From: Bdellovibrionales bacterium
GTDB lineage: Bacteria > Bdellovibrionota > Bdellovibrionia > Bdellovibrionales > UBA1609
NCBI GenBank assembly: GCA_965116155.1
Contig: OZ220488.1
Span: 450,420-514,419 of the forward strand
Length of the DNA: 64,000 bases
Reading direction: 5' to 3'
Position numbers and translations under genes: made by a program
In this document: positions 1,120-62,496 of the stretch, piece after piece
Layout: each line of letters opens with the position of its first letter
Numbering within the stretch: position 1 is the first letter of the stretch
Notes under the pieces: model-generated
Seen by the model: the letters and a program-made list of their open reading frames with translations, nothing else
What the model was told of the DNA's origin: nothing
Database searches by the model: none

Positions 1120-2274
1120 TTATACTGACTCAGGCTCGGGCCGGCCATCCTCAATATAAAGCCTGTCCCCTTTTATAAAAAAGCGCCTTTTTAAAATAGT
1201 GCCGCTCATGTTTTTTTGGGGGCGGTTTATATGCTTCATAAGCTCTAGCAAATGCGTCTGCCCATAACCCTTAAGCCCCCTCGCACGCGCATACTCTGCC
1301 AGCGCCCCTTGCGGGCCCAGTGGGTGCTTGTAAAGCTCTTGAATCTCTAGCTCATCCCCTGCTTGAGCCATGCCATGCTCTTTGCCATGCTCTTTAACCG
1401 CACCTGCCAAAAGCTCCAAGCTCCTTGACAAGGCCTTAGTTGCACCAGGGCGCTTTTGCTCCAGCAGCCCCAGCCAGCGCGTTTTGAGCCACGCCCTAAA
1501 GTCTGTGGCGTTGGTGGGGTCATCCACGTACTTAAGGCGACGCTCAAGGGCATAATGCCCCAACTCCTCACGCCCCACACATAAAAAAGGCCTTAAATAG
1601 GGCGCACGCCACACCTGCATGGCCTTTAGGCCCCCTAAGCCCGTGCCCCGCATCAGCCGCATCAGCCGCGTTAGGAGCAGGTCTTCTGCATGGTGCGCCA
1701 GCGCGATGCTGCACGGCCGCGCCTGCGCCAGACGCCGAAAGCCCGCATGCCGAAACTCCCTTAGGTCTGCCTCACTTAAAAGAGGGCGCTTGGCACCATA
1801 ATGCAGCACCCGACAAGGCAAGCCATAGAGCTTAGCCACGCGCTGCACCAGGCGCTTAGCCTTATTGCGAAAAAGCGCATTCTCGTGCTCTCCATGGTGC
1901 ACATGGACCACCTCAAGCTTAAAACTCAAAGCCCCTTGCAGCACGCGCAGCACCTCGAGCAAGCACATGGAGTCCAAGCCCCCGCTTACGGCCACGCAAA
2001 TTACAGCACTAACGGAATGCTCTGGGATAAGCGCCGCCTCTGGTGCAGCACCCTGCAAGGGGGCCTTTGCACTAGAGGCAAGCGACCCACAGAGCATTCT
2101 GCGGTCTATACGGCTTCTACAAGCCTGTAGCTTTGGGCGTTCTTTAAGCCCAAAGCGTCCAGAACTGCGAAATATATCCCTTAGCAACCGGTAGGTTTTG
2201 TGCTCCAAAGTGTTCCACTGAAGTTTGGCACGGTCCTTGCTCACAAGGGCGACAATAGTACATATAAAAACCAA
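1120..2274 (-). CDS. tilS: tRNA(Ile)-lysidine synthase
   Basis: PP-loop motif VAVSGGLDSMCLL and the overall TilS/MesJ pattern. It lies directly upstream of ftsH, a common arrangement. The longest ORF is probably over-extended; the ATG at 2097 (MLCGSL...) is a more plausible start. Confidence 0.8.
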   Translation of the reverse strand: MVFICTIVALVSKDRAKLQWNTLEHKTYRLLRDIFRSSGRFGLKERPKLQACRSRIDRRMLCGSLASSAKAPLQGAAPEAALIPEHSVSAVICVAVSGGLDSMCLLEVLRVLQGALSFKLEVVHVHHGEHENALFRNKAKRLVQRVAKLYGLPCRVLHYGAKRPLLSEADLREFRHAGFRRLAQARPCSIALAHHAEDLLLTRLMRLMRGTGLGGLKAMQVWRAPYLRPFLCVGREELGHYALERRLKYVDDPTNATDFRAWLKTRWLGLLEQKRPGATKALSRSLELLAGAVKEHGKEHGMAQAGDELEIQELYKHPLGPQGALAEYARARGLKGYGQTHLLELMKHINRPQKNMSGTILKRRFFIKGDRLYIEDGRPEPESV

Positions 2275-6687: not shown

Positions 6688-6776
6688 TGTACTCCCAATT
6701 TTTCGTCTTACCCCCATGTCCCACTGGCAGGGCCCAAAGGGCCCGGATCCCAGTGGGACCAACAACAGTGCGTTTA
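6668..6776 (+). repeat. Intergenic repeat family: A-like box (TTAGAACGCTAG, read through in-frame at the end of the lipoprotein gene) plus a module D GC-rich hairpin
   Basis: TTAGAACGCTAG at 6668-6679 differs by 1 nt from the TTAGAGCGCTAG box seen at 6 other loci. GTCCCACTGG..CCAGTGGGAC (6718-6727 / 6750-6759) encloses GGGCCC-AAA-GGGCCC and is the same module found at 13007-13048 and, inverted, at about 45797-45846. Confidence 0.75.
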
Positions 6777-6848
6777 CGCCACGCGTGGGAGCTTTTACAA
6801 GCACAGGTGTGTTACACCTGTGCTTGTAAAAGCTCCCACGCGTGGCGT
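6776..6848. terminator. 35-bp perfect hairpin straddling the E1-beta stop codon (candidate bidirectional terminator)
   Basis: The left arm (6776-6810) is the exact reverse complement of the right arm (6814-6848). The loop is GTT. The stop codon TAA (6812-6814, minus strand) lies at the loop, and the right arm encodes the last 11 codons. Confidence 0.7.
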
Positions 6849-11431: not shown

Positions 11432-11993
11432 GTTGCTTAACCACAAAGAAAGTGCTAAAAAGCAACAAAAAAATATACTGCGAAATGACTAAAAACGAGG
11501 GATGCCGCCCTATAAGGAACCCTACAAGGAAAAGCGTAAATGAAAAAACTTTTGTGTGCGTTTTTGATTTTGTTTTTGTGCTCGTATGCTTGGGCAGGTA
11601 AAGGCATACGCGGTGACTATTGGGGCAAGCCCAAAGCAGCTAGTGATCCAATAAACTTGCCGGATTCTGTTAAAAATATGCTGGATGCAGAGGTTCTGAC
11701 AGGCGCTATGCTGCCTCTTTTTTGGGCCATTAAACACAAAGATTACGCTCTTGTAAAAACTTTGCTAAACCACAAAATAGATATCAATGCTCAAGATGCC
11801 CAAGGCCGCACGGCTCTTATGCAGGCGGTGCAAATGCCTAACTATGCAGATATTGAGACTTTGTTGGGCCATGCCGGCGTTGATATTAACCAAACAGACG
11901 ACCATGGCAAAACGGCTCTTTTTTGGGCTGCGCAAAGGGGCAGATTGCACTTTATAAAAACTTTATTAAATAGTGGCATTGATGTTAACGCCA
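11432..11993 (+). repeat. Segmental duplication, copy 1 (leader, signal peptide and first three ANK repeats), paralogous to 49435-49995
   Basis: By manual alignment, 11613-11993 and about 49612-49995 differ at about 8 positions in ~380 bp. The upstream ~110 bp and the signal-peptide region are more diverged but clearly homologous. Confidence 0.85.
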
Positions 11994-12679
11994 GGGGCGA
12001 ATATGGCAATACAGCTCTTATTTGGGCGGCGTATAACGGGCATGAAGAGTCTGTGCAGGCTCTTTTAGCTCATAAAGATATTGATGTTAACGCCAAGGAC
12101 GATGCTGGCGATACAGCGCTTATTTTGGCTGCGAGCAGAGGGAATGAAGAATCTGTACAAGCTCTTTTGGCTCATGAAGATATTGATGTTAATGCTAAGG
12201 GCGAATGTGGCTATACAGCGCTTAGTTGGGCTGCGCGTAACAGGCATGAAGAGTCTGTGCAGGCTCTTTTAGAACATAAAGATATTGATGTTAACGCCAA
12301 GGACGGTGATGGCAATACAGCGCTTATTTGGTCTGCGCGCAGAGGGCATGAAGAGTCTGTGCAGGCTCTTTTAGCTCATAAAGATATTGATGTTAATGCC
12401 AAGGACGGTGATGGCAATACAGCGCTTATTTGGGCTGCGTATGAAGGGCATGAAGAGTCTGTGCAAGCTCTTTTAGCGCGTAAAGATACTGATGTTAACG
12501 CCAGGGGCGAATATGGCTATACAGCGCTTTTTTGGGCTGCGCATGACGGGCGTGAAGCGCTTGTAGGGATTTTGCGAGAGCATGGGGCTATTAATGCTGG
12601 CACAATAGAAAAACCTGGCGCTGTGAACGTGCTTTTACAGCGTGGCAAATCACTCTGCACAAAGTTATTACAAAGTTAG
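11540..12679 (+). CDS. Secreted ankyrin-repeat protein (9 ANK repeats)
   Basis: It has the Sec signal peptide MKKLLCAFLILFLCSYAWA-GKG. Repeats follow of the form G-x-TAL-x-x-AA-x-x-GHEESVQALLAHKDIDVNAKxxx. The stop codon TAG (12677-12679) lies inside repeat module A. Confidence 0.9.
   Translation: MKKLLCAFLILFLCSYAWAGKGIRGDYWGKPKAASDPINLPDSVKNMLDAEVLTGAMLPLFWAIKHKDYALVKTLLNHKIDINAQDAQGRTALMQAVQMPNYADIETLLGHAGVDINQTDDHGKTALFWAAQRGRLHFIKTLLNSGIDVNARGEYGNTALIWAAYNGHEESVQALLAHKDIDVNAKDDAGDTALILAASRGNEESVQALLAHEDIDVNAKGECGYTALSWAARNRHEESVQALLEHKDIDVNAKDGDGNTALIWSARRGHEESVQALLAHKDIDVNAKDGDGNTALIWAAYEGHEESVQALLARKDTDVNARGEYGYTALFWAAHDGREALVGILREHGAINAGTIEKPGAVNVLLQRGKSLCTKLLQS
12005..12600 (+). repeat. 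In-frame 102-bp (34-aa) near-identical tandem ANK repeat array within ank1
   Basis: Units start at 12005, 12107, 12209, 12311, 12413 and 12515. The core CATGAAGAGTCTGTGCAGGCTCTTTTAGCTCATAAAGATATTGATGTTAA is almost invariant between units. Confidence 0.85.
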
Positions 12680-12870
12680 AGCGCTAGGAAAATGCCATGG
12701 GATTAAGCGCATCTTCCTGATAGCACCTAAAGGTGCGGCCATCAGGAAGATAAGCGTCCCACATGGCATTTTCCGACCTATAAGGCATCTATGGCCCTGC
12801 GGGATTGTGCGATCGTTAGGCACAAGGCGTCCAGACTTGCGTCAAAGTCCCGTACGTTGAGCAAACAAAA
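12676..12870 (+). repeat. Modular palindromic intergenic repeat, full A-B-C unit
   Basis: Module A is TTAGAGCGCTAG at 12676-12687. Module B is a long hairpin at 12687-12774 (GGAAAATGCCATGGGA..TCCCACATGGCATTTTCC, with inner stem TCTTCCTGAT/ATCAGGAAGA). Module C runs from CCTATAAGG.. through GCGTCAAAGTCCCGTACGTTGAGCAAACAAAA. Confidence 0.85.
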
Positions 12871-13062
12871 ATTAGAGCGCTAGCGAAATTCTCTGGGATA
12901 AGCGCGTGAGCATAAAGGTGTGTCAGTCTTCACAACAAGGTAACATTGCTGGCGCTTTTATGCTTACGCCTTTAGGCGAACGCACCACATCCTGCGTCTC
13001 ACCCATGTCCCACTGGCAGGCGCCAAAGGCGCCGGATACCAGTGGGACCAACAGCAGCGCGT
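12871..13062 (+). repeat. Second repeat unit: module A, left arm of module B, inverted pair of module E, and module D hairpin
   Basis: ATTAGAGCGCTAGCGAAATTCTCTGGGATAAGCGCG starts at 12871. GCGTGAGCATAAAGGTG (12904-12920) is paired with GCGCTTTTATGCTTACGC (12952-12969). Module D GTCCCACTGG..CCAGTGGGAC lies at 13007-13048. Confidence 0.8.
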
Positions 13063-13114
13063 AACATAAAAGCCACCCCTAATGCCTAAAGGCATTAGGG
13101 GTGGCTTTTATGTT
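13063..13114. terminator. 24-bp hairpin straddling the secF stop codon (candidate bidirectional terminator)
   Basis: CATAAAAGCCACCCCTAATGCC (13065-13086), loop TAAA, GGCATTAGGGGTGGCTTTTATG (13091-13112), plus two further A:T pairs. The secF stop (13079-13081) is inside the left arm. The right arm and loop encode IKATPNAFRH. Confidence 0.7.
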
Positions 13115-14041
13115 GTCGAGCCAGATGACCAATGGAGAAGCAACAAAGATAGACGAATACGTGCCCACAACAACGCCAATACCCAAAGTAAAAGCAAAAT
13201 CCCTAATGACACCTTGGGCAAAAAAGTACATCGCAAACACCGCTAGCAGAGTCGTAACAGATGTCAGCACCGTGCGCGTAAGCACATCGTTCAAAGCCCT
13301 GTTCACCACACCACTAAAGCCACCCTTTGCAGCCTCAACCCCACGCGCACCAAAAGCCGACACGTTCTCCCTAATACGATCAAAAGTCACAATCGTATCA
13401 TTGAGCGAATAACCTATAATCGTTAAAATCGCCGCCATAGTCTGCACATTCACCTCACGCGCAAACAAAGCAAAAATCCCGAGCGTAATAATACTGTCAT
13501 GGAACAAACACACCACAGCACCAGGTGCGTACTTGTAATCAAACCTCAAGCCCACATAAATCAAAACCAAAAGCAAACTATAAAAAGCCGCCAGCAAACC
13601 ACGCCGCTTTAGGTCCTCCCCTATCTGCGGGCCCACAAAATCCACCTTGCGCACCTGAGCCCCCTTAAGAGGCGCAAAAAATTTTGCAAAATCCACCTTG
13701 GCATCCGCACCCCTATGCTCCACTCGAATCAAAAACTCCCTCCCCTCAGCACCCAAAGACTGCACCTGAGCTTTTTTGTAATCTGCTTGTTCTAAAAACT
13801 CCCTCACATCACCAGCGGTGGTTTCAGCATCCTCAAACAACAGCTGCACCTGAGTGCCTCCAGAAAAATCGATCCCATAGTTAAACCCCCGCAACCCAAT
13901 ACCCAACAGCGACCCTAGCACCAAAACCGCAGACACCACCCCACACACGCCCGACAGCGCTATAAAATTAAACCCTAAACCGCCTCCCCGACGGGCAGGC
14001 CCACTTTGGCTCTTTTTTATGCCACCATCCTTAGCCATCAC
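13079..14041 (-). CDS. secF: Protein translocase subunit SecF
   Basis: SecF-type membrane protein (..GIDFSGGTQVQL.., ..IIGYSLNDTIVTFDRIRE..) located immediately downstream of secD. Confidence 0.9.
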   Translation of the reverse strand: MMAKDGGIKKSQSGPARRGGGLGFNFIALSGVCGVVSAVLVLGSLLGIGLRGFNYGIDFSGGTQVQLLFEDAETTAGDVREFLEQADYKKAQVQSLGAEGREFLIRVEHRGADAKVDFAKFFAPLKGAQVRKVDFVGPQIGEDLKRRGLLAAFYSLLLVLIYVGLRFDYKYAPGAVVCLFHDSIITLGIFALFAREVNVQTMAAILTIIGYSLNDTIVTFDRIRENVSAFGARGVEAAKGGFSGVVNRALNDVLTRTVLTSVTTLLAVFAMYFFAQGVIRDFAFTLGIGVVVGTYSSIFVASPLVIWLDNIKATPNAFRH

Positions 14042-14064
14042 CTGTCTCTCTCCCCATACAACAC

Positions 14065-15816
14065 TTAAACACGCACTAGGTTTTTAAATTTAAACTTGTG
14101 TACCAAGCTCTCAATAATAGTGCGCGACACAAACACCGCCGTAAACACAGAGGTCGCAATTCCACAAAGCAACGTCACTGCAAAACCCCTAATAGGCCCC
14201 GTGCCATAATACATCAAAACCAAGCACACTAAAGCTGTTGTAATATTGGCATCTAAAATAGCAGAAAACGCCTGCCCAAAGCCATCGGCCACGGCACCTC
14301 CCACACCCGCACCCTTACGCAGCTCCTCTTTGATGCGCTCAAACACAATAACATTAGCATCCACCGCCATACCCACCGTTAAAATAATCCCCGCCACCCC
14401 AGGCAAAGTTAGCGTAGCTCCCAACGAAGACAAAATGCCAAAAATAAACAGCACATTTAGCACCAAAGCCAAATCAGCCACCAAGCCCACCGCACCGTAA
14501 TAAAACAGCATAAACACCAGCACCAAAACCATACCCACAACCCCAGCCAGTTCGCCCGCAGCAATGGCCTCCGCACCCAGAGTTGGCCCCACTGTGCGCT
14601 CCTCCAATTGACTCAAATCCGCCGGCAACGAACCCGACCGCAAAGCACTCGCTATAAACTGAGCCTCTTTGCGCGTTTGCTCATAATTAGACGCCCCCAG
14701 GGTAATGCGTGCCCTTTGGGAGTCGATTTTTTCCCTCACAGAAGGCGCCGACTTGACCACACCATCTAATACAATGGCCATAAAACCAGGCGCGATCGCC
14801 TCCGTTAGCTCTGCAAACAATCGCCTGCCCTCAGGAGTAAAACGAAAATTCACCTCGTATCGACCAAACTCATCCGGAGCCGCAATAGCATCCTCTAAAT
14901 GCTCTCCACCTAGCTGGTTGTTTACTTCAATCAGGTGCGGCACGCGGCCCGTTAGCATATCCTGAGCTTTGTCGTTTTTCTCAAACAGCACCCGCGTATT
15001 GAGCGGCAATTTAGGCTTTAAATATTGGTTGAGCTGCTCAACATAAGCCCTATAACCACCCCCTTTAGTCTCTTTAAACTCCACCCCCTTAGAAGCAGCC
15101 TCTTCCATCCACTCCGCGAGCTGCTCCGGCTCTACCTCTTTAGACACTGGACGAAAATTCAGCCTCGCCGCCCTATTAACCAGCTCCTTAGCCCCAGCGG
15201 TATCCTTAATGCCAGGCAGTTGCACCAAAATCCTGTCATTCCCCTGGGCCGCAATACTCGGCTCCGCCACCCCAAACTCATCAATACGCGCCCGCACCAC
15301 CTCTATAGCCTGATCCACCACCTGCGCCCTATAAGCATCCAGAGTGCTCGGTACAAAACCCACTTTAAACGCCCTGCCGCCACCCGCGTCAGCAGACCCC
15401 TCCACAAGCTCTAAAACCTGCAAACGCACACCGAAGTAATCCCGTGACTCTATATGCTCGCGCAAAGCGGGCTCATCATCGCCAGCACCAAAGCCCACCA
15501 GCAGCTGAAGCGCGTTTTGAGGATCAACCCTCAACTCCCCATGGCTGAGTTTAGCAAAATCAAAGCTGTCCTTGAGCTCTGTTAAAAGGCGCATGGTTTT
15601 TTCAACCATAATGGCGCGCGTGTCCACACCCATCACCAGCTGCAAACCTCCTTGAATATCCAAGCCCTTGGTAACGCGGTTTTTGAGCATAAAAGAATTC
15701 CTATCGCGCTCCGTGTCCAGAGCTTTATCTGCAAAGTTGGGCACCACCCCCACTACCGCTAAGGCTACAAAACCCACCACCACTAGCCAGCGCATTTTTA
15801 AACTCTCAATCAACAT
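14065..15816 (-). CDS. secD: Protein translocase subunit SecD
   Basis: SecD pattern (..GLDIQGGLQLVM.., ..GILTVGMAVDANVIVFERIKEE..) in the order yajC-secD-secF. Confidence 0.9.
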   Translation of the reverse strand: MLIESLKMRWLVVVGFVALAVVGVVPNFADKALDTERDRNSFMLKNRVTKGLDIQGGLQLVMGVDTRAIMVEKTMRLLTELKDSFDFAKLSHGELRVDPQNALQLLVGFGAGDDEPALREHIESRDYFGVRLQVLELVEGSADAGGGRAFKVGFVPSTLDAYRAQVVDQAIEVVRARIDEFGVAEPSIAAQGNDRILVQLPGIKDTAGAKELVNRAARLNFRPVSKEVEPEQLAEWMEEAASKGVEFKETKGGGYRAYVEQLNQYLKPKLPLNTRVLFEKNDKAQDMLTGRVPHLIEVNNQLGGEHLEDAIAAPDEFGRYEVNFRFTPEGRRLFAELTEAIAPGFMAIVLDGVVKSAPSVREKIDSQRARITLGASNYEQTRKEAQFIASALRSGSLPADLSQLEERTVGPTLGAEAIAAGELAGVVGMVLVLVFMLFYYGAVGLVADLALVLNVLFIFGILSSLGATLTLPGVAGIILTVGMAVDANVIVFERIKEELRKGAGVGGAVADGFGQAFSAILDANITTALVCLVLMYYGTGPIRGFAVTLLCGIATSVFTAVFVSRTIIESLVHKFKFKNLVRV

Positions 15817-15838
15817 GGCTCTTTACCCTTTTTTGCCC

Positions 15839-16219
15839 CTATGTACCCTTTGCTGTATCGCGCTCTAAGGCCGATGAGATCTGATTCCTTAGCACCCTAA
15901 TCCGCGTGCCCTGCGACACCTCCAAAACCACAAAGCCCTTGCTTAAACCTGTGATCTTGCCAAAAATGCCCCCGCTCGTTAAAACCTCGTCCCCTTCTTT
16001 TAACTTTTGCAAAAAGCTCTGGTGCTCCTTATGCCGACGGCGCTGAGGACGTATAAGCAAAAAGTAAAAAATCACAAAAATAAAAACAAACGGCACCAGC
16101 TGCTCTAAAGCACTTGGTGTCGGCGGCGCATCCTGCGCCCAAGCCCGCGCGGCAAAAACTAATACTCCTAAAAACAAAGCACCCATAACTACCAAACGCA
16201 ATAACACACTAGGCCCCAC
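15839..16219 (-). CDS. yajC: Preprotein translocase subunit YajC
   Basis: Conserved YajC core FYFLLIRPQRRRHKEHQSFLQKLKEGDEVLTSGGIFGKITGL. The longest ORF starts at a GTG abutting the repeat region. The ATG at 16186 is an alternative start. Confidence 0.85.
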   Translation of the reverse strand: MGPSVLLRLVVMGALFLGVLVFAARAWAQDAPPTPSALEQLVPFVFIFVIFYFLLIRPQRRRHKEHQSFLQKLKEGDEVLTSGGIFGKITGLSKGFVVLEVSQGTRIRVLRNQISSALERDTAKGT

Positions 16220-16667
16220 TGCGTAAGCATAAAAGTGGCCCCTTGAAATTTTGGGCGGGTAGCGTAACCACCTGCCACCCTTTGCAGGGTGCTAAGCAGG
16301 TGGTAAGCGAAAAGTCCCAGGATTTCAAGGGAGAACAGGATAGCTCGCAGTATCGCACGGGACTTTGACGGCAGTCTGGTCGCGATAGGCCTAAAGATCG
16401 CCTATCGCTACAGGCTCATAGTAGCCTTTAGCTGTCTAGTGCACAAAAATGCCTCAGGCAGGACCACTTGTCTACCTGATGGCCCGCGCCCAAGGGCGCT
16501 ATCAGGTAGACTGCGTAGGGCTGAGAGCATTTTTGTTGGCACTTTTATGCTTACGCCATAGCCCGCGAAATTCTCTGTGGGACGCTTGGCGCCATCGCAG
16601 CAGCACCCTTTCAGGGTGCTGCTCTTGCGCCGCCGCTTATCCCAGAGAATTTCGCTAGCACTCTGAC
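16220..16667 (-). repeat. Composite repeat region in minus orientation, filling the der-yajC spacer
   Basis: Read on the minus strand after the der stop, it runs GTCAGAGTGCTAGC (A-like), then a B hairpin (16575-16655). Next comes a 346-bp segment bounded by a perfect 17-bp inverted pair GCGTAAGCATAAAAGTG (16221-16237 / 16550-16566). That segment holds a B-variant (about 16441-16546), module C (about 16337-16430) and a nested hairpin (16239-16331). Confidence 0.85.
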
Positions 16668-18104
16668 TTAACGGCTAAAAAAGCCCACCCTCACCGGAAC
16701 ATCCCTCCAGCCCCAACGCTCCTGCAAAGATTTTGTCAAAAATCTTCTGTAAGTAGCCCTCACCCCACGCGGGTAATTTGCAAACACCATAAAACTTGGC
16801 GGCACCTGCCGCGACTGAGTAATATAATAAAACTTTAAACTCTTAGTGCCCCACAGACCCGCAGGCGTGCCCTGGGTCAGCTTTGCAAAATAGCGGTTCA
16901 GCACCCCTGTAGGCACCCGCTGGCAAGCCCGTGCCTGAAGCTCGCGCGTGCCGCGCAGCACCTTTAATAAACCCGTTCCCTTAAGAGCGCTTACAAAATA
17001 ACAGGGCATATGCGGAAAAAAACTGAGCACACCCCTAAAAGACTTCCTCCGCTCTGTAAGGGAGTGTTGCGATGCGTCGCACTTGTTGGCCACTAATACA
17101 AATAGCTTGCGCTCCTCTATAAGCCTTTGCACCATCCGCGCCTCAAAGTCCCCCACTCCTTGGCGCACGTCGCAAACCACCAGCACCACATCAGCCTGTT
17201 TGATGGCATGCCAACTTTTATACGACGCAAGCAGCCCCAAAACATCGCCTGCTTTTTTAAACTGCGCCGCACGCCTTAAGCCTGCGGTGTCTATGATTTC
17301 AAACTCCCCTGCTTGTGGATGGTAAAACGCAGCGCTTGTGCTGTCGGTTGTTGTGCCCGCGCGGGGCGCCACCAAGCAGCGGTCAAATCCCAAAAATGCA
17401 TTGCACAAAGAGCTCTTGCCCACATTGGGCTTGCCCACCAAACACAACCTAATGCGAGCCGCTGGATTACACTGCGCTTGCAGCTCAGCATGAACGGCAC
17501 TACCTGACAAGGGATTTTGGTTGGCGCCTTTACTACAAGCGTGTGGCAAATCGAGCCCGCTCAGATTACCTTGCTTAAGCCCACCTTTACTTTGCAAGTG
17601 CGGCAATGCGCGCTCTACTACGTCTGCCACACCGTAATCCGAAGCAAATGCACCCACGAGTATGTTATCCACACCCAAAGCATAAAAAGGCGCCAGCATA
17701 GCCGCCTGTGCCTCAGCCTTTAAAGGCTTGTCCACCTTGTTAACCACCAAAACATAAGGCACGCCCCGCGCGCGCACGAGGCGCATCAGCTCCTCCTCTT
17801 CAACACCCACCCCCTTACGCGCATCCAAAACAAACACCACAAAATCTAGTGCCAACGCCTCAAAGCCCCGCACCCTGAGCGCGCCCTGCGCACTACTAAA
17901 CCCGCCCGTATCCACTACCTCAAAGTCACACCCCCACCAATGTGCGCAGCCGAAAATAAAATCCCGCGTCACGCCAGGCATATCTCGCACCAAAGCCTGT
18001 TTGCGCCGTACCAAAGCATTAAAAAGCGTGCTCTTGCCCACATTGGTACACCCTACCAAGCACATTCGAGCCACAGGCGCGCCCTTATTGGGATGAGTCT
18101 GCAT
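16668..18104 (-). CDS. der: Ribosome-associated GTPase Der/EngA (two GTPase domains plus a KH-like C-terminus)
   Basis: It has two P-loops (GCTNVGKST and GKPNVGKSS), DTGG/DTAG and NKVD/NKCD boxes, and a C-terminal KH-like region. It overlaps the rnc stop by 20 nt. Confidence 0.85.
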   Translation of the reverse strand: MQTHPNKGAPVARMCLVGCTNVGKSTLFNALVRRKQALVRDMPGVTRDFIFGCAHWWGCDFEVVDTGGFSSAQGALRVRGFEALALDFVVFVLDARKGVGVEEEELMRLVRARGVPYVLVVNKVDKPLKAEAQAAMLAPFYALGVDNILVGAFASDYGVADVVERALPHLQSKGGLKQGNLSGLDLPHACSKGANQNPLSGSAVHAELQAQCNPAARIRLCLVGKPNVGKSSLCNAFLGFDRCLVAPRAGTTTDSTSAAFYHPQAGEFEIIDTAGLRRAAQFKKAGDVLGLLASYKSWHAIKQADVVLVVCDVRQGVGDFEARMVQRLIEERKLFVLVANKCDASQHSLTERRKSFRGVLSFFPHMPCYFVSALKGTGLLKVLRGTRELQARACQRVPTGVLNRYFAKLTQGTPAGLWGTKSLKFYYITQSRQVPPSFMVFANYPRGVRATYRRFLTKSLQERWGWRDVPVRVGFFSR

Positions 18105-18840
18105 TGTCAGCCTCCGTACTAGAGCGGAGCTTGCCTAAGGCGATAAGCGCGGCCTTATTTTGCGCCTGCTTTTTACTCACCCCCACAGCGGCTCCCAAAA
18201 GTTGTTCGTCCCCCGCATAAACCTGCGCCCGAAACTTTGCCTTATGCCCATGCTCCGCCTCGCTTTTATAAACCAAATCTGGCAACTTTAACCTATGCGC
18301 CAGCTCCTGCAACTGGGACTTATAATCCTCAAAATCCTCCAGCACCGAAGTCTTAAGCAAAGGCACAAAAATGCTCTCCACCACAGCCTGCACCCCCACA
18401 AAACCTCTATCTAAAAAACAAGCCCCCACCACCGCCTCGAAAGCTCCACACAACACCCGGTCGCTCTTTAAAGCCCGAGCCTTTAAACCCTTGCCAAATT
18501 TTAACCGCTTGCCCACGCCGCAATCCCTTGCCACACGGGCCAGGGTTTTTTTATTCACCAGCGCTGCCCTATGCCGACTGAGTTCACCCTCGGTATAGTG
18601 CGGATAATGGCGCATTAAAATCCACCCCACACCCAAAGACAAAACCGCATCGCCCAAAAACTCCAAGCGCTCGTTATCGCCCAAAGCTTGAGGGTTTTGC
18701 CTAAAATAACTCGTATGCGTTAAAGCTTTTTCAAGTAGCTGCTTGTCCCTAAAATCAAACAACCCACCCGCACCAGTACCCCATGAGCGCCACCAAAATA
18801 AGCCACAGACAAAGCTACAAAATTTTGTAATGCTTTTCAT
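18085..18840 (-). CDS. rnc: Ribonuclease III
   Basis: RNase III signature ALTHTSY..NERLEFLGDAVL and a C-terminal dsRBD (..SKKQAQNKAALIAL..). Confidence 0.9.
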   Translation of the reverse strand: MKSITKFCSFVCGLFWWRSWGTGAGGLFDFRDKQLLEKALTHTSYFRQNPQALGDNERLEFLGDAVLSLGVGWILMRHYPHYTEGELSRHRAALVNKKTLARVARDCGVGKRLKFGKGLKARALKSDRVLCGAFEAVVGACFLDRGFVGVQAVVESIFVPLLKTSVLEDFEDYKSQLQELAHRLKLPDLVYKSEAEHGHKAKFRAQVYAGDEQLLGAAVGVSKKQAQNKAALIALGKLRSSTEADNADSSQ

Positions 18841-23893: not shown

Positions 23894-24538
23894 ATGAAAT
23901 ACTTTATGGTGCTTGTTAGCGAAAATAAAGAAACCCTCAGCCGCCTGCAGGACATTATGCAGCAAAGCGGACAGCCCATAAAATCAGGGACTTTTTCTGA
24001 AAGCCAATGGATCCAGTACTCTCAGATACCCAATTTTATGGCACGCCTAACAAACGAAAACCTCTTAGGGCAGTACCAGGCCGCTAACTACCAGCCGGCT
24101 TATGCCAAAAAGTCTAAAGCAAGCAACCTGCCCCAAGGTATAAACGCCACATCGCACCTACGCCTATTGCCACGCTCTGAGCACCAAGCGGTATCCACCA
24201 ATACCCTAACGCAAAACACACACACTAAAGGGCCACAGTCTCCAGCAGTACCCTGGCAGGGCCTTATGGGGCAAAAGCCCACCCCTCAAGCACCCGAAGC
24301 CGCAGCAACAAAGGACGGGCAGGGCTTTTTTAAAAAATCCCCTCCCATGTGTTCTATGAACGAGGTCCAGGCTCAGGCCATTTACTCGGCTTTGGTTGAA
24401 AGCGGAGGCAATGTCAGCAAAACAGCTAAAATTTTAAAACTCGGGCGTGCCACCCTTTACAGAAAAGTGCAACAATACGGCATAGAAATCTCAGACATCC
24501 GATCTTGGAACAGGACAAGCTACAAAAAAGCAAGTTAG
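23894..24538 (+). CDS. Fis-family helix-turn-helix DNA-binding protein (no receiver or AAA+ domain recognisable)
   Basis: The C-terminal SALVESGGNVSKTAKILKLGRATLYRKVQQYGI is an NtrC/Fis-type HTH. The ATG at 23894 follows AGGAAG. The longest ORF (from 23480) runs through the divergent promoter region and is rejected. The stop codon lies in repeat module A. Confidence 0.7.
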   Translation: MKYFMVLVSENKETLSRLQDIMQQSGQPIKSGTFSESQWIQYSQIPNFMARLTNENLLGQYQAANYQPAYAKKSKASNLPQGINATSHLRLLPRSEHQAVSTNTLTQNTHTKGPQSPAVPWQGLMGQKPTPQAPEAAATKDGQGFFKKSPPMCSMNEVQAQAIYSALVESGGNVSKTAKILKLGRATLYRKVQQYGIEISDIRSWNRTSYKKAS

Positions 24539-24734
24539 AGCGCTAGCCGCATGCTCTGGTCCAAGCGCCGTCTGCCTGATAGTCCCCACAGGGGACGATC
24601 ATCAGGTAGACAAGCGCCCCACAGAGCATGGGGCGGCCTATAAGGCTTCTATGAGCCTGTAGCCTTGGGTGTTCGGTAGACCCAAGGCGGCCACACTCCC
24701 GTCAAAGCCCCGTGCGATGGGCAAACACAAGTTA
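24535..24734 (+). repeat. Modular palindromic intergenic repeat, cleanest A-B-C unit, spanning stop codon to stop codon
   Basis: Module A is TTAGAGCGCTAGC at 24535-24547. Module B is a long hairpin at about 24550-24630. Module C lies at 24635-24731 (GGCCTATAAGG..GCCTGTAGCCTTGGGTG..ACCCAAGG..CCGTCAAAGCCCCGTGCGATGGGCAAACACAAG) and directly abuts the dacB stop at 24732-24734. Confidence 0.9.
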
Positions 24735-30845: not shown

Positions 30846-30906
30846 TGCGTATTAGCCGATAGTCCTGCTAGGGGGTGTGTGCTTGGTATGCGCGCAGGCG
30901 GGTCCT

Positions 30907-32385
30907 ATGGGAAAATCTCAAAAAACACCCAAACAGCCGCAAAGTCCCTTGGCAGTCTTTAATACTAACAAGGTGTTTTTGGTTTTTTTGATAGGTGCGT
31001 GCTTTTTTTTGCCTATCGTGTATAGCTCTTGCGAAGATATAGAGTTTGTAAAACGCCCTGGCAAAATAGACACCACCCCACCTAATATAACAATTAACAC
31101 TCAAAAAAGCGTTAGCTCTATTACCGAGCAAGATACGGCTAAGGTTTATTTTGTGGCAAAAGACGGGGACTCGGGCGTGGCAAAAACTCTATGCCGCGCA
31201 GCACAGGTGGACGCCATAGAAGATGAAAAGTTTGGGCGCTGTAAAAGTCCATTTATAATCAACATACTGCAAGGCAACTATCAGTTTGAAGTAAAAGCCT
31301 TGGACAAAGAAGACAACGAAAGCTCTGTTGCAACACATAATTGGTGCCGCGGCCCTATGTGTGGTCGCATAGCGCATACTGGCAGCTTGCACAGCAGCGT
31401 TCAAAATGACAAGGTTGGGATTTTATTTGTTGTAGACAACTCTAGCTCTATGAAAAAAGAACACCGAGCTCTTTCTAAACACACGCCCCAGTTTTTGGAC
31501 CGATTTTCAGATTTGGATTATAAAGTCGCTGTAAGTGTTACGGATTATCATTTAGAAAAAAACGCCGAGCACCCTTTTAGGCCTATTGTATCAGGAAGCG
31601 ACTGCGCTTCGCACCGCACAGTAGAATCATCTGGTGCAACGGCTTTTGTTATAGACTCCCAAAATGCAGACCTTGCACAGGCGGCGGTGGATTTGTCGGC
31701 TACGATTATCTGTGTAGGGACTAAAGGGCATAGTGAAGAAAGCGGATTGGGTAGTTTTTTAAATTTGGTAAATGCTTATGATAGTAGCAATGCAGAAGCT
31801 CGCTCTTCTAATGGGCTTAATTTTTTTGATAACTTACAACACCTGGTGGTAGTTCTGATTACAGACGAAGGTGACAGATTTGTGCATAGAGAAGGCTTGT
31901 CCGCTGACGATATAAAAACCCGCTTCCACACAGTGTTTCCGGATACGGCTTTTTTGTGGCATTCTTTTGTGCAAATGAAGCATGTAATTAACTCTCATCC
32001 CCGATTTAAAGGGATGTACCTGTACAAGGATATAGCGGACCTCACCCAAGGCAGCGTACAGGATGTTTTAGACACTGCAGCTTATGGCACCGTGCTGACT
32101 GGTATTGCAGATTTAACACGCAAGCATATTATACGCGCGCGTTTACAGTGTGCGCCGGTGAACTACCAAAACCCACAGGACTACGATCCTGAAAACCCTG
32201 AGCACCGCTTGATGGAGGTTTTAGATTCACAAGGCACGCCCCTTAGTCCTCAGCCTATGTGCAAAATCGATCGTCACCTTAAAGTGCAGTGCTTTAGCTG
32301 CAGTGATCCACAAGACCTCGATACATGCGACACCCCATTAGATGCAGGCGAGTATACTCTTAAGTACCAATGTTTAGCCAATTAG
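30907..32385 (+). CDS. Lipoprotein with one Cys-paired Ig-like module and a vWA domain with an intact MIDAS motif
   Basis: The signal/lipobox-like sequence is FLVFLIGACFFLPIVYSS-C. The Ig-like module is ..LCRAAQ..CKSPFIINILQGNYQFEVKALDKEDNES... The vWA motifs are ILFVVDNSSSM (DxSxS) and VVVLITDEGD. It is a paralogue of the C-terminal half of 2332-6687. The stop codon lies in repeat module A. The longest ORF starts at 30877. Confidence 0.75.
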   Translation: MGKSQKTPKQPQSPLAVFNTNKVFLVFLIGACFFLPIVYSSCEDIEFVKRPGKIDTTPPNITINTQKSVSSITEQDTAKVYFVAKDGDSGVAKTLCRAAQVDAIEDEKFGRCKSPFIINILQGNYQFEVKALDKEDNESSVATHNWCRGPMCGRIAHTGSLHSSVQNDKVGILFVVDNSSSMKKEHRALSKHTPQFLDRFSDLDYKVAVSVTDYHLEKNAEHPFRPIVSGSDCASHRTVESSGATAFVIDSQNADLAQAAVDLSATIICVGTKGHSEESGLGSFLNLVNAYDSSNAEARSSNGLNFFDNLQHLVVVLITDEGDRFVHREGLSADDIKTRFHTVFPDTAFLWHSFVQMKHVINSHPRFKGMYLYKDIADLTQGSVQDVLDTAAYGTVLTGIADLTRKHIIRARLQCAPVNYQNPQDYDPENPEHRLMEVLDSQGTPLSPQPMCKIDRHLKVQCFSCSDPQDLDTCDTPLDAGEYTLKYQCLAN

Positions 32386-32837
32386 AGCGCTAGCTGCGTA
32401 AGCATCAGAGTGCTAGCCACATGTTCTGGGCTAAGTGCGTAAGCATAAAAGTGTTAGTGAGGGTGCCATGGCCAGAGAGCGCCGCCGATTGCGCACCTTC
32501 AGGTGCACAAGGCAAGCGGTCCATGCCAGGGCGCCCTCACGTGCTGGATAAAGCGCAGTCTCCCTGATAGTCCCTGCAAGGGACGACCATCAGGGAGATA
32601 AGCGCCCCACAGAACATGTAGCGACCTATGAAGCTACTATGGCCCTGTAGCGAAGTGCGTAAGCATAAAAGCCTAGTCTGAGCATTTGAGCAATGAGTGC
32701 AGTCCTCTTGGGAACATCCTGCAAGGATGAAAAACCCAGGAGGACAAACGACAGACTCAAATGCTCAGGCGGGCTAGAAAGAAGGGCCAAAGGCCCGCAG
32801 CGACCACACTTACGTCAAAGCCCCTTGCATTGAGCAA
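32382..32837 (+). repeat. Mosaic/nested repeat region (modules A, E, B and C with internal insertions)
   Basis: Module A occurs twice (32382-32394 and 32407-32418). The left arm of B (ACATGTTCTGGGCTAAG) is interrupted by GCGTAAGCATAAAAGTG (32437-32453) plus a hairpin insert and then resumes at ..CTGGATAAAGCGC. Module C is split by GCGTAAGCATAAAAGCC (32657-32673) plus a ~100-nt hairpin insert (TGAGCATTTGAG..CTCAAATGCTCA). Confidence 0.8.
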
Positions 32838-32876
32838 CACAAACTAATTAAAAGCTACGCTTTTAATTAGTTTGTG
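32838..32876. terminator. 18-bp perfect hairpin straddling the pilQ stop codon
   Basis: CACAAACTAATTAAAAGC (32838-32855), loop TAC, GCTTTTAATTAGTTTGTG (32859-32876). The pilQ stop TAA (32867-32869, minus strand) is inside the right arm. Confidence 0.65.
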
Positions 32877-40517: not shown

Positions 40518-40620
40518 AACCCCCAGTGACCTCCCCCTTTGCCGTTTGGTGGCAGCCCAACTGACAGGCACCACAAGCGCCGGTGCCCAGTAGGGCCAAA
40601 TAACAGTCCGCGTAGCGAAT

Positions 40621-40666
40621 ACCCAATTAGGTGCATAAACATTTAGGGTTATGCATCTAATTGGGT
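40621..40666 (-). terminator. 17-bp hairpin (one G.T) straddling the gspE stop codon
   Basis: ACCCAATTAGGTGCATA (40621-40637) pairs with TATGCATCTAATTGGGT (40650-40666) across a 12-nt loop. The right arm encodes the last codons TQLDA plus the stop (40649-40651). Confidence 0.55.
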
Positions 40667-42328
40667 GTTCGCCAAGACTTCTTCAATGGTCGTGATACCA
40701 TGGAGTACTTTACTAATTCCATGGTCCCTAAAGGTTCGCATGCCCAGCTCAATGGCGCGCTTTTTTATTGCCCCTGAGTCCACTTTTTGCATCACCAGCG
40801 TACGTATCTCTTCATTCACTAGCAAAAGCTCTTGTATCACGGTTCTGCCAAGATAGCCTTTTTCGCCACACTCACGGCATCCTTTAGCCCTATAAATTTG
40901 CGCGCCTTTTATGTCTTCTTTTTTTAACTCAATGCTATCTAGCTCTGCCTGCGAAGGCTCATAAAGCTCTTTGCAATGAGGGCATATGACCCTCACTAAC
41001 CTTTGCCCCACAACCCCCAAAAGACTCGTTGCAATTAAAAACGGCTCACAACCCATATCGATCAAGCGCGGAAACACTCCAGCAGAGTCGTTTGTGTGTA
41101 TAGTGGAAATAACCAAATGCCCCGTAAGAGAAGCATTAATAGAAATCTCTGCTGTTTCTAAGTCTCTAATTTCACCCACCATAATTACGTTAGGGTCCTG
41201 CCGCAAAATGCTTCTTAATCCTGCCGCAAAGCTGAGGCCAATTTTGGAGTTCACCTGTATCTGGCCTATGCCATGTATACGCTGCTCTACGGGATCTTCT
41301 ACTGTGACAATGTTTTTATCTGCACTGTTAATGTAACTCAGTGCCGCATACAAAGAGGTCGACTTACCACTACCCGTAGGACCTGTTACCAAAATGATCC
41401 CGTATGTGCGCTTTAGTAGCTCTTTCATTTCTGTTAAACTATGCGTATCAAAACCCAATTGCTCTAAGTCCAACACCACATTAGATCGATCTTGCAATCT
41501 TAACACTATGCGCTCACCAAAAGCCGTTGGCACCGTGCTTAAACGCACGTCAATATCCTTGCCAGCTAGCTTTAAAGGTATGCGTCCATCTTGGGGGAGG
41601 CGTTTTTCTGCAATATTCAAATTCCCCATCACCTTAATGCGCGAAGTAATTGCATTTTGTAGTCTTTTAGGAGGCTTGAAAATATCAAACAAAATACCAT
41701 CCACCCTAAAACGCACGACCATAGATTTTTCGTAAGGCTCTATGTGTATGTCAGAGGCTTTTTCCTTAACCGCCCGAAACAGCAAAGTGTTAACTAACTT
41801 AATAACCGGCGCATCGTCATCACCGGCTTCTAAAAGATCAATTACAGGGTCGTCTAGATCGTACTCTTCGCTTTCGATTTCATCCAAACCCTCTAGACCT
41901 GTGGTGCTTTTTTCATAAACCCTATTAATGGCCTCTTGCACCTTATGCACCGTACTAACAATAGGCTTAACGGGTTTTTGAAAAATTGCCCGCATATCCT
42001 CTAAAATGCTGTAATTTAACGGGTTAGCAACCAGCACCTCCACTGCCTTGGTGCTGTCTTTAAAGGGCAAAATATTATGTGCCTTTGCATAGGCTATAGG
42101 AATATCCCGCACCAGATCAGCAGAAATATCCCCATACGGAATGCTTGCTAAAAACCGCACCCCCAAATGCCCACACAGCACGCCCACTGCCTGCTCAGGA
42201 GTAGAGAAGCTGTGCTTTTTCATATGATCCGCTATAGGCACGCCCTCATCGCCCAATAACGCAAGCGCCATTGAGAGCTGTTTTTCACTCATAGAAGTGC
42301 TTTTTACTATCAGGTTTTCAAAAGCCAT
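40649..42328 (-). CDS. gspE: Type II secretion ATPase GspE
   Basis: It has a T2SE N-terminal domain, Walker A GPTGSGKST, Asp/His boxes and a tetracysteine motif CPHC..CRECGEKGYLGR. It lies directly downstream of gspD. Confidence 0.85.
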   Translation of the reverse strand: MAFENLIVKSTSMSEKQLSMALALLGDEGVPIADHMKKHSFSTPEQAVGVLCGHLGVRFLASIPYGDISADLVRDIPIAYAKAHNILPFKDSTKAVEVLVANPLNYSILEDMRAIFQKPVKPIVSTVHKVQEAINRVYEKSTTGLEGLDEIESEEYDLDDPVIDLLEAGDDDAPVIKLVNTLLFRAVKEKASDIHIEPYEKSMVVRFRVDGILFDIFKPPKRLQNAITSRIKVMGNLNIAEKRLPQDGRIPLKLAGKDIDVRLSTVPTAFGERIVLRLQDRSNVVLDLEQLGFDTHSLTEMKELLKRTYGIILVTGPTGSGKSTSLYAALSYINSADKNIVTVEDPVEQRIHGIGQIQVNSKIGLSFAAGLRSILRQDPNVIMVGEIRDLETAEISINASLTGHLVISTIHTNDSAGVFPRLIDMGCEPFLIATSLLGVVGQRLVRVICPHCKELYEPSQAELDSIELKKEDIKGAQIYRAKGCRECGEKGYLGRTVIQELLLVNEEIRTLVMQKVDSGAIKKRAIELGMRTFRDHGISKVLHGITTIEEVLANTQLDA

Positions 42329-45689: not shown

Positions 45690-45717
45690 CCTCTCGGTTC
45701 AGAATACCATTAGCATA

Positions 45718-45849
45718 ATTAGAGTGCTAGCCACATGCTCTGGGATAAACGCAGTCTGCCTGATAGTCCCTGAAAAGGGACGGCCATCAGGTAGACAAGT
45801 GCCCCTGGTATCCGGCCCTTCGGGCCTGCCAGGCAGGCATGGTGAGACG
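45718..45849 (+). repeat. Repeat unit: module A plus module B, whose right outer arm is replaced by or merged with an inverted module D
   Basis: The sequence starts with TTAGAGTGCTAGCCACATGCTCTGGGATAAACGC. The inner stem follows: TCTGCCTGAT (45755-64), apex AGTCCCT-GAAA-AGGGACG, then ATCAGGTAGA (45786-95). It ends with TGGTATCCGGCCCTTCGGGCCTGCCAGG..CATGGTGAGACG. Confidence 0.8.
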
Positions 45850-45889
45850 AAAGCAAACCCTAACACCGCAAGGTGTTAGGGTTTGCTTT
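45850..45889 (-). terminator. 18-bp perfect hairpin straddling the TRAP permease stop codon
   Basis: AAAGCAAACCCTAACACC (45850-45867), loop GCAA, GGTGTTAGGGTTTGCTTT (45872-45889). The stop TAG (45860-45862, minus strand) is in the left arm. The right arm encodes KANPNT. Confidence 0.65.
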
Positions 45890-49434: not shown

Positions 49435-49995
49435 GTTGCCTAACCACAAAGAAAATGCTAAACAGCAAACAAAATGCAATGCGAAGTGACTAAAAACGAA
49501 AAGGCGCCGCCCTGTAAGGAACCCTACAAGGAAAAGCGTAAATGAAAAAGCTTTTGTGTGCGTTTTTGGCTTTGGTTTTGTGCTCGTATGCTTGGGCTGG
49601 CAAAGCCCCGCGCGATGATTATTGGGGCAAGCCCAAAGCAGCTAGTGATCCAATAAACTTGCCGGATTCTGTTAAAAATATGCTGGATGCAGAGGTTTTG
49701 ACGGGCGCTATGCTGCCTCTTTTTTGGGCCATTAAACACAAAGATTACGCTCTTGTAAAAACTTTGCTGAACCACAAAATAGATATCAATGCTCAAGATG
49801 CCCAAGGCCGCACGGCTCTTATGCAGGCGGTGCAAATGCCTAACTATGCAGATATTGAAACTTTGTTGGGCCATGCCGGCGTTGATATTAACCAAAAAGA
49901 CGACCATGGCAAAACGGCTCTTTTTTGGGCTGCGCGCAGAGGCAGATTGCACTTTATAAAAACTTTATTAAATAGTGGCATTGATGTTAACGCCA
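49435..49995 (+). repeat. Segmental duplication, copy 2 (paralogous to 11432-11993)
   Basis: See copy 1. It has the same orientation and lies about 38 kb downstream. Confidence 0.85.
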
Positions 49996-50531
49996 AAGAC
50001 AAAGGTAGCGATACAGCGCTTATTTGGGCTGCGCACAAAGGGCATGAAGAGGTTGTGCAAGCTCTTTTAGAACGTAAAGATATCGATGTTAACGCCAAGG
50101 ACGGTTGGGGCAATACAGCGCTTATTTGGGCGGCGCGCAAAGGGCATGAAGAATCTGTACAAGCTCTTTTAGCGCGTAAAGATATCGATGTTAACGCCAA
50201 GGACGGTTGGGGCAATACAGCGCTTATTCGGGCTGCGCACAAAGGGCATGAAGAATCTGTGCAAGCTCTTTTAGCGCGTAAAGATATTGATGTTAACGCC
50301 AAGAACGATTGGGGCAGTACAGCGCTTATTCGGGCTGCGCACAAAGGGCGTGAAGAATCTGTGCAAGCTCTTTTGGCTCATGAAGATATTGATGTTAACG
50401 CCAAGGACGCAGATGGCAATACAGCTCTTATTGGGGCGAAAAAAAACAATCACAAGAAAATTGCAAAAGCAATAAGCCTTGTCCGACAGGCTCGCGCCGA
50501 ACCATCGTGTGCAGAGCTACTAGTCCCTTAA
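49542..50531 (+). CDS. Secreted ankyrin-repeat protein (8 ANK repeats), paralogue of ank1
   Basis: It has the signal peptide MKKLLCAFLALVLCSYAWA-GKA. The first ~150 aa are nearly identical to ank1, after which the repeat array differs (DGWGNTALIWAARKGHEESVQALLARKDIDVNAK..). Confidence 0.9.
   Translation: MKKLLCAFLALVLCSYAWAGKAPRDDYWGKPKAASDPINLPDSVKNMLDAEVLTGAMLPLFWAIKHKDYALVKTLLNHKIDINAQDAQGRTALMQAVQMPNYADIETLLGHAGVDINQKDDHGKTALFWAARRGRLHFIKTLLNSGIDVNAKDKGSDTALIWAAHKGHEEVVQALLERKDIDVNAKDGWGNTALIWAARKGHEESVQALLARKDIDVNAKDGWGNTALIRAAHKGHEESVQALLARKDIDVNAKNDWGSTALIRAAHKGREESVQALLAHEDIDVNAKDADGNTALIGAKKNNHKKIAKAISLVRQARAEPSCAELLVP
50007..50430 (+). repeat. In-frame 102-bp near-identical tandem ANK repeat array within ank2
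   Basis: Units start at 50007, 50109, 50211, 50313 and 50415. Confidence 0.85.
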
Positions 50532-62270: not shown

Positions 62271-62274
62271 CACA

Positions 62275-62470: not shown

Positions 62471-62496
62471 TCAATTTACGCGCTAGAAAGATAATA

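Follow-up and report, generated by a model that had tools for sequence, protein, structure and literature searches.

The stretch analyzed here (64,000 nt of a Bdellovibrionales bacterium, contig OZ220488.1 of assembly GCA_965116155.1, positions 450,420 to 514,419 of the forward strand; below, the window) is ordinary chromosome of a deep Bdellovibrionota lineage. Its genes include tilS, pyruvate dehydrogenase E1, an oligopeptidase, yajC-secDF, der, rnc, an ABC transporter, dacB and lspA, as well as pilMNOPQ, gspCDE, a TRAP transporter, argS, astAD and three ankyrin-repeat genes. The named matches of SecD are from Bdellovibrionales metagenome-assembled genomes (MAGs), the best non-self match being 62% identical. 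At least 13 hairpin units have been identified in the window by nhmmer searches and with a covariance model derived from eight copies; all of them lie between genes. The subject of this study is the modular element of approximately 200 nt whose central part is a long hairpin (module B), present, e.g., at 12687–12774. The first-pass annotation, made from the letters alone, had proposed that this hairpin is under selection for structure, as its stems change in a compensatory manner between copies.

The hairpin at 12687–12774 (plus strand) scores 93.4 bits with the covariance model. It is composed of an outer stem with an AC bulge, AAGCG internal-loop motifs, the inner stem TCTTCCTGAT/ATCAGGAAGA, an unpaired A, and a tip formed by the apical stem GCACC/GGTGC with a GCC bulge on the 3' side. 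The region folds into a single hairpin both as RNA (–49.6 kcal/mol, z = –9.3) and as DNA (–28.8 kcal/mol, z = –9.2).

Covariation was assessed in an alignment of eight in-window copies comprising 34 base pairs. Standard pairing is observed in 89.6% of cells, compared to 71.0 ± 1.7% with the 3' letters shuffled, and two-sided changes are seen at 26 of the 34 pairs, compared to 12.7 ± 2.1; none of 500 shuffles reaches the observed values. When the 3' partner is slid by 1–3 columns, just 37–44% of cells are paired, and 4–11 pairs have two-sided changes. For a tree-aware null model we used a neighbor-joining tree with a paired ancestor, and the changes derived by parsimony for each column (55 on the left and 55 on the right) were placed independently, with probabilities proportional to branch lengths. 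One thousand simulations yielded 66.6 ± 2.5% of paired cells and 6.9 ± 2.1 two-sided pairs (maximum 14), and none reached the observed level, so that the number of covarying pairs in the eight copies is well above the phylogeny-aware expectation. Numerous uncompensated disruptions are not seen among these copies either: unpaired cells cluster in two copies broken by insertion or truncation, and the five intact canonical copies are paired at 31–33 of the 34 positions. The covariation of module B is real, and the proposed selection for structure is supported against shuffles, slid registers and the tree-aware null model.

Five copies carry inner stems of the TCTNCCTGAT/ATCAGGNAGA type, at the positions initially reported; the pattern TCTNCCTGAT has 10 matches, compared to 0.2 expected. 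One pair of this stem had been claimed to take four states, and all of them read as described: T:A (12712/12741), A:T (16471/16501), C:G (32559/32589) and G.T (24571/24601 and 45755/45786), but the two G.T copies are close relatives and may represent a single event. All substitutions in the 10-bp stem, at least five, fall on this one pair, the other 18 stem bases being invariant, and the apical stems, loops and outer arms vary freely among the same five copies. Such confinement of changes to one pair indicates site-specific constraint rather than recent origin of the copies.

Other details of the first-pass annotation required more adjustment. The apical hairpins are located and read as claimed, and the AC bulge on the 3' arm (CCC-AC-AGAG) and the 3–4 nt bulge 3' of the apical stem are where they had been placed. 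The outer arms also read correctly, but several pairings had to be corrected. The copy at 16471 does contain the A:T pair, but it belongs to the family on the minus strand only, and its outer context is that of a second type of the element (type II, described below), with the leader GCGTAAGCATAAAAG. The arm TGTTCTGGG (32421–32429) is present, but its partner is approximately 100 nt away owing to an insertion, and in the 45755 copy, which retains the G.T inner stem, another repeat has taken the place of the right outer arm. The arms ATTCTCTGGGA/TCCCACAGAGAAT exist, but their owners (62287, and 16565 on the minus strand) have entirely different inner stems.

These two copies, together with the one at 2014, keep the outer arms ATKCTCTGGGATAAGCG / AAGCGNCCCACAGAGMAT, with inner stems that are unrelated and yet self-complementary (GCCTCTGGTGCA/TGCACTAGAGGC, GCTCCTGGCGC/GCGACAGGAGC and GGCGC../..GCGCC). 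Thus, four unrelated self-complementary inner stems are found among copies with the same outer arms, which makes the case stronger than first reported. Moreover, the bulges are retained while the flanking stems change, and this argues against simple copying of one arm to the other. Overall, the copies have diverged to 55–85% identity, and the base pairing, the bulge positions and two short loop motifs are kept. What is conserved is the hairpin shape, not the sequence, in agreement with the view of a functional hairpin rather than decaying junk. Selection may act at either of two levels, the hairpin serving the host or the spread of the element itself.

The complete element consists of a stop-rich leader A, (TTAGCAYAA)TTAGAGYGCTAG, the long hairpin B, a linker C (CCTATAAGGCTTCTATGAGCCTGTAGC), a second hairpin D with a 7–9 bp stem and the loop GNTCNNTAR, and a tail E (CGTCAAAGYCCC..GAGCAAACA). 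TTAGAG of the leader pairs with CTATAA of the linker, and A, B and the start of C form a palindrome of approximately 125 nt. The stems of hairpin D covary as well (CTTGGGT/ACCCAAG, GATAGGC/GCCTATC and TTTGGGG/CCCCAAA among them), with 94% of cells paired, a level reached in none of 2000 shuffles. The fold of the whole element, calculated for the copy at 24526, has z = –6.9.

In the sister type II, the leader GCGTAAGCATAAAAG precedes long hairpins of quite different sequence (16441–16538 and 58867–58969 on the minus strand, 16240–16331, 32673–32773 and 50657–50754), which are followed by GCTAGACAGCTA and then by the same modules C, D and E as in type I. The covariance model trained on B recovers four of the type II hairpins outside the training set (32673, 50657, 58867 and 16240) with 29–51 bits, and also the inner part of smaller hairpins, termed here Y units (6718–6759 and 13007–13048). 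In nearly all model-aligned hairpins the 5' arm carries RAGYGC and the 3' arm either AAGCG or AAACG, the inner stem is 10–11 bp long, and the junction, with 0–2 unpaired nucleotides on the 5' side and 3–5 nt on the 3' side, leads into an apical stem of 4–6 bp; the AC bulge is restricted to type I. No resemblance of the internal loops to k-turns, IHF sites or T-arms was seen by eye.

The type II leader GCGTAAGCATAAAAG has 8 matches with at most two mismatches, compared to 0.4 expected (12904–12969, 16221–16235, 16542–16556, 32437–32451, 32657–32671). In two cases (12903/12904 and 32435/32436) it comes after the same point of the left arm of B, just past GGGNTAAG, which is suggestive of a preferred site of joining or insertion.

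Among the type I copies, the first one starts with the leader TTAGAGCGCTAG (12676–12687) and continues after the hairpin with modules C, D and E at 12777–12871, that is, the linker CCTATAAGGC..CCTG, the D hairpin at 12804–12826 (stem TTGTGC/GCACAA, loop GATCGTTAG) and the tail CGTCAAAGTCCC..GAGCAAACAAAAA. The cleanest full copy is at 24526–24734 (99.7 bits), with the G.T pair in its B hairpin (24546–24634). Two more full copies on the plus strand are those at 1992–2210 (91.9 bits; degenerate leader TTACAGCACTAA; B hairpin at 2014–2100, with GCCTCTGGTGCA/TGCACTAGAGGC as the inner stem and one G.T pair inside) and at 62267–62478, between astA and astD (92.4 bits; B hairpin at 62287–62378 with GCTCCTGGCGC/GCGACAGGAGC). 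The minus-strand copy at 16557–16672 (93.6 bits) has the leader TCAGAGTGCTAG and a B hairpin at 16565–16650, where the GGCGC..GCGCC inner stem is combined with a long apical stem. The copy at 45710–45805 (plus strand, 70.4 bits) is truncated and contains the leader and B (45730–45805) with the G.T pair, a reversed Y-type hairpin being present in place of the right outer arm.

Type II is represented on the minus strand by the element at 16345–16556 (66.3 bits), composed of the leader GCGTAAGCATAAAAG, the hairpin at 16441–16538 with TCTACCTGAT/ATCAGGTAGA (the A:T copy of the first-pass annotation), CTAGACAGC, and C, D and E, and by the element at 58695–58985 (29.6 bits), with the leader TAAAAGCGCCAG, the hairpin at 58867–58969 and the tail CGTCAAAGCCCCGTGCATTGAG. 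On the plus strand, the type II leader of the copy at 16221–16331 is combined with a long hairpin (16240–16331, 29.5 bits) of unrelated sequence and the same architecture, and the element at 50640–50850 (42 bits) comprises the hairpin at 50657–50754, CTAGACAGCTA and a D hairpin at 50771–50813. Of the Y units, the one at 13002–13062 (plus strand) is a 42-nt hairpin, GTCCCACTGG-CA-GGCGCC-AAA-GGCGCC-GGATA-CCAGTGGGAC, with B-like inner architecture, and in the second one (6713–6773) the apical stem covaries to GGGCCC/GGGCCC.

Several loci are rearranged. A tandem second leader with the left outer arm only (12872–12903, plus strand) is cut by head-to-head fragments of the type II leader at 12904–12969, and the region 16221–16672 contains a type I copy and then type II copies in both orientations. 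The region 32373–32845 (plus strand, 79 and 51.1 bits) is a composite with a split left arm: it includes leader A (32382–32393), a second leader with the left arm (32405–32435), an inserted type II leader and hairpin (32437–32540), the B core with the C:G pair (32531–32625), a further type II leader and hairpin (32657–32773) and tail E (32791–32842). At 45805 the right arm is replaced by the Y unit. Truncation, nesting and tandem copies indicate that not every locus is maintained, and this favors selection on the lineage of propagating copies.

Of the nine copies with a leader, six start within 0–6 nt of the stop codon that ends a real same-strand gene. The TAG codons terminating an ankyrin gene (11540–12679, stop at 12677–12679), a Fis-family helix-turn-helix gene (stop at 24536–24538) and a 502-aa gene (30877–32385, stop at 32383–32385) lie inside TTAG of the leader, and the TAG of astA (62268–62270) is within the extended leader TTAGCACAATTAGAGTGCTAG. 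On the minus strand, the stop codon of der (16670–16668) is 2 nt before the leader, and the TAA of a ferredoxin gene (58978–58976) makes up the first bases of the type II leader TAAAAGCGCCAG. Stop codons are repeated in frame within the leaders (TAG-CAY-AAT-TAG for type I, TAA-GCA-TAA for type II). The 1992 copy, located between divergent genes, and the 45710 copy, antisense to both neighboring genes, are exceptions to the placement at stop codons.

The 13 hairpin units detected by the covariance model, Y units included, are oriented to the plus (10) and minus (3) strands, and both minus-strand copies abutting a stop codon follow minus-strand genes. Gene direction predicts copy orientation better than the replication strand does. 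The plus-strand GC skew is strongly negative over 12–50 kb (–0.12 to –0.26) and close to zero in the part with plus-strand genes (52–64 kb), so effects of replication and transcription are mixed in the skew.

Perfect or near-perfect palindromes with arms of 18–35 nt are found at gene ends (6776–6848, 13063–13114, 32838–32876, 45850–45889 and 40615–40672). These gene-end palindromes, downstream of the elements, look like real, bidirectional terminators. They are distinct from the bulged B family, and on the flanks of two of them (13063 and 6776) there are CATAAAAG-like words similar to the type II leader. Given the sense orientation at stop codons, ahead of terminators, the elements are most likely transcribed within 3' untranslated regions (UTRs) or, in the case of astA-astD, within an operon. 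RNase III would be the obvious nuclease for RNA hairpins of 95–125 nt; its gene rnc (18085–18840) adjoins der, and no link of this gene to the elements was found here.

The ankyrin-repeat genes (11540–12679, 49542–50531 and 54595–56331) are built of 102-nt tandem units and match Pfam Ank families with E-values down to 1e-111. The segments 11504–11803 and 49506–49805 are 95% identical, which suggests recent duplication or gene conversion. Ankyrin genes are also present in one locus of the nearest relative (L005, see below). The open reading frame (ORF) at 1120–2274 (minus strand), which contains tilS (PP-loop domain at residues 92–257), spans the 1992–2210 element in an antisense frame that stays open; tilS itself probably starts inside or just past this element, downstream of the ORF start.

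Folding of both strands, suggested in the first-pass annotation as a means to see which one tolerates the G.T positions, was performed and did not single out a strand: sense and antisense energies are similar, and over all stems there are nine G.T and seven A.C cells. Still, sense RNA is the slightly more stable form for seven of ten long hairpins (by approximately 3 kcal/mol on average), and at the hypervariable pair every non-Watson–Crick state is a sense-strand wobble. Taken together with the gene-sense orientation, these wobbles make the evidence lean to folding of the sense strand, as RNA or single-stranded DNA.

No known RNA class accounts for the hairpin. There are no Rfam 15 matches at gathering thresholds in the whole window; a search with a clean copy at E-values up to 10 yields only a 10-bit chance match, and ARAGORN reports no tRNA or tmRNA. 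An intrinsic terminator was considered and rejected, as no terminator-like site is called at B (region 12000–17000), the T run behind B is base-paired to the A run that precedes the hairpin, and no U-tract follows. Counts from the promoter and terminator scan do not exceed the shuffled expectation, with none at B.

Outside the window, further copies have been found on the same 1.6-Mb contig via two ORFs that translate them, P0121 and P0122. The family thus extends beyond the window within the same genome. These are ORFs of 64–66 aa called across element copies, one in an antisense and one in a sense frame, and the proteins are almost certainly spurious. Judging from the protein sequences, P0122 would correspond to a copy with a G.T variable pair and a compensated outermost stem CCACATGC/GCATGTGG, and P0121, to a copy with a T.G variable pair. 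These two were the only ORFs retrieved from approximately 5.8 billion predicted proteins with translated element frames and peptide profiles. In approximately 22 kb around secD of the nearest relative (62% SecD identity; loci L005 and L006), nhmmer and the covariance model detect no element, and only simple palindromes are present. An exact pattern covering the right arm and the linker start (22 specified bases) produced only chance matches in genome and metagenome collections (L001–L004); these are located in four freshwater contigs, one of them from a Nanopelagicales MAG, where the pattern falls each time on an identical position of a single conserved coding gene and no hairpin is present. 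In viral contigs, a pattern of the leader and the left arm has 20 matches, none with a B-like hairpin under the covariance model, and BLAST against plasmids reveals no copy. Literature searches by motif strings retrieved only unrelated primers, and nothing relevant was found on Bdellovibrio with REP. The sequence searches are consistent with a family that has spread within this one Bdellovibrionota genome, from a lineage without close relatives in the databases.

With middling confidence, we interpret the element as a new family of non-autonomous, interspersed modular hairpin repeats, of the same kind as REP, BIME, REPIN, ERIC and Correia elements, with the shape of the hairpin under selection and the copies co-transcribed at gene ends. 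Module B would be the central foldback of a repeat of approximately 200 nt, occurring as two sister types and smaller hairpin units. A trans-acting protein encoded outside the window may read the conserved shape, that is, the outer stem, AAGCG loop motifs on both arms, an inner stem of 10–11 bp, the asymmetric junction and a short apical stem, on single-stranded nucleic acid. If persistence or propagation is limited to copies or lineages that retain the fold, the compensatory pattern would follow. In a 3' UTR, a hairpin of 95–125 nt could in addition serve as a 3'-end barrier or as a site of RNase processing.

Some observations weigh against this interpretation. The evidence comes from 8–13 copies, all within a single 64-kb window of a single genome. 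The window ORFs include no gene for a transposase, RAYT or recombinase, and terminal inverted repeats with target duplication are not seen for the whole element. Mobility, suggested by nested, tandem and truncated copies, and the ends of the element are both putative, and the strict link of sense orientation to stop codons fits a host-selected RNA role at least as well. A classical miniature inverted-repeat transposable element dependent on a DDE transposase was rejected, as the ends TTAGAGCGCTAG.. and ..GAGCAAACACAAG are not inverted repeats and the palindrome formed by A, B and the start of C always continues into the rest of C and then D and E, with no duplicated flank. The left flanks are TTAG in seven copies, TCAG in two and TTAC in one.

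The element might instead be a cis-acting RNA of the host, a 3'-UTR module or a source of 3'-derived small RNA that controls mRNA decay, processing or termination, where the AAGCG loops and the junction bulge would form a protein-binding site and mobility would be merely historical. We consider this possible and distinctly less probable; the two interpretations are compatible. It agrees well with the six copies at same-strand stop codons and the one inside the astA-astD operon, with gene direction being a better predictor of orientation than the replication strand, and with ordinary terminator palindromes downstream of the elements. The wobbles at the variable pair occur on the sense strand only (24571 and 45755, as well as G.T in P0122 and T.G in P0121, as suggested by their codons), and seven of the ten long hairpins are slightly more stable as sense RNA. 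On the other hand, truncation or splitting affects three or four of approximately 13 copies, one copy lies antisense to the neighboring genes, G.T and A.C cells are nearly equally frequent over all stems, and neither an Rfam match nor a U-tract after the hairpin is observed. The absence of a homolog in the approximately 22 kb of the relative leaves no orthologous conservation to show.

Neutral homogenization and an attC-like function are both less likely than either of these interpretations. Arms of neutral palindromes could be kept complementary by hairpin-templated repair or template switching (quasipalindrome correction), or whole palindromes could be swapped. Inner stems that are unrelated between copies may indeed reflect replacement rather than stepwise compensation, the direct repeat AAGCG flanking the inner hairpin could mark an insertion point, and the copies are clearly prone to rearrangement. 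However, and this is the main objection, arm-to-arm copying would erase asymmetries, while the AC bulge, the unpaired 5' A and the 3–5 nt bulge on the 3' side stay in place despite different stems. Persistence of G.T wobbles in three related copies, and restriction of TCTNCCTGAT substitutions to one pair with 18 invariant stem bases next to variable loops and apical stems, also render this explanation very unlikely. Even less support can be given to structure-specific recombination sites that act as folded single strands with a dedicated tyrosine recombinase, like attC of integrons, an idea we regard as highly improbable. Conservation of structure without that of sequence, extrahelical bases on one arm, a site starting at the stop codon of a same-strand gene, and TTA on both sides of some copies are all reminiscent of attC. 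But the core sites RYYYAAC/GTTRRRY are absent: the leaders AAGTTAGAG, CAATTAGAG, TAATTAGAG and AAGTCAGAG show no consistent GTTRRRY, and where a G precedes the leader (GTTAGAG, two of nine), the last position is still broken. Moreover, the flanking genes (secDF, pilMNOPQ, gspCDE and astAD) belong to housekeeping operons on both strands, 4–13 kb apart, with no cassette array, and no integrase is encoded in the window.

The element resembles known families of interspersed hairpin repeats in several respects and differs from each of them in others. Like REP/REPIN elements of Pseudomonas and E. coli, which are mobilized by RAYT (TnpA-REP) transposases of the Y1 HUH type encoded in the same genome, usually between REPs, it is a lineage-specific family of high-copy extragenic hairpins within one genome, with imperfect foldbacks of approximately 100 nt and compensatory changes in hairpins. 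Such changes are common in REPIN hairpins (PMC3116915), so the signature observed here is not unprecedented. Hairpin D also has GTAG(C) directly 5' of its 7–9 bp stem in five of seven copies, resembling the REP head. In contrast to REPINs, B does not represent a doublet made of two small palindromic REPs and has no GTAG head, and the element, which has a leader and a tail, is asymmetric and tied in the sense orientation to stop codons. Similar to BIMEs of enterobacteria and BOX elements of Streptococcus pneumoniae, the copies are mosaics of a few short modules that recur in other orders, in tandem and as partial copies. The malE-malF REP and BOX A-B-C elements lie in transcribed intergenic regions, including those inside operons, and the location of our element, one copy of which is within an operon, would be comparable if it is transcribed as we infer. 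There is, however, no sequence similarity; the present hairpins are much longer and far more variable at constant shape, and their leader contains tandem stop codons.

ERIC/IRU and Correia (NEMIS) elements are transcribed together with their neighboring genes, and in Yersinia and Neisseria RNase E or RNase III processes the resulting RNA hairpins. They share with our element an imperfect palindrome of approximately 125 nt, formed here by end-to-end pairing of A, B and the start of C, but neither TA target duplications nor clean terminal inverted repeats are seen around the whole present element, which has a fixed right-hand extension (C, D and E) and much higher diversity of copies. Integron attC sites are likewise defined by a folded shape with extrahelical bases on one arm and start at or near a same-strand stop, and differ in the core sites, cassette array and window-encoded integrase, all missing here. 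Derivatives of IS200/IS605 (PATE), which depend on a TnpA of the genome, have subterminal hairpins and neither inverted repeats nor duplications, insert 3' of a fixed tetranucleotide and are biased in orientation with replication. The absence of inverted repeats and duplications here and the hairpins near both ends (B and D) would fit such an origin, and the left flanks are compatible with it; the orientation of copies (10 plus, 3 minus) is better explained by gene direction than by replication.

A bolder version of the preferred interpretation, a family of modular hairpin repeats selected for shape, is that one protein reads the hairpin shape across sequence-unrelated subfamilies, recognizing the AAGCG loops and the 0–2/3–5 nt junction, and that a mobile element targeting stop codons has placed its modules in the sense orientation there, supplying structured 3' UTRs genome-wide and using an attC-like logic outside integrons. 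We regard this version as rather unlikely.

The family constitutes a clean within-genome case where diverged copies of a repeat retain the fold, which is evidence for maintenance and not for decay. It extends the phenomenon of the REP/REPIN type to an uncultured Bdellovibrionota lineage without close relatives in the databases, and has two unusual features, namely, sense-oriented anchoring at stop codons and the presence of sequence-unrelated hairpin subfamilies with one architecture. If the enzyme or the RNA-binding partner is found, the system could serve well as a model of how nucleic acids are recognized by their shape.

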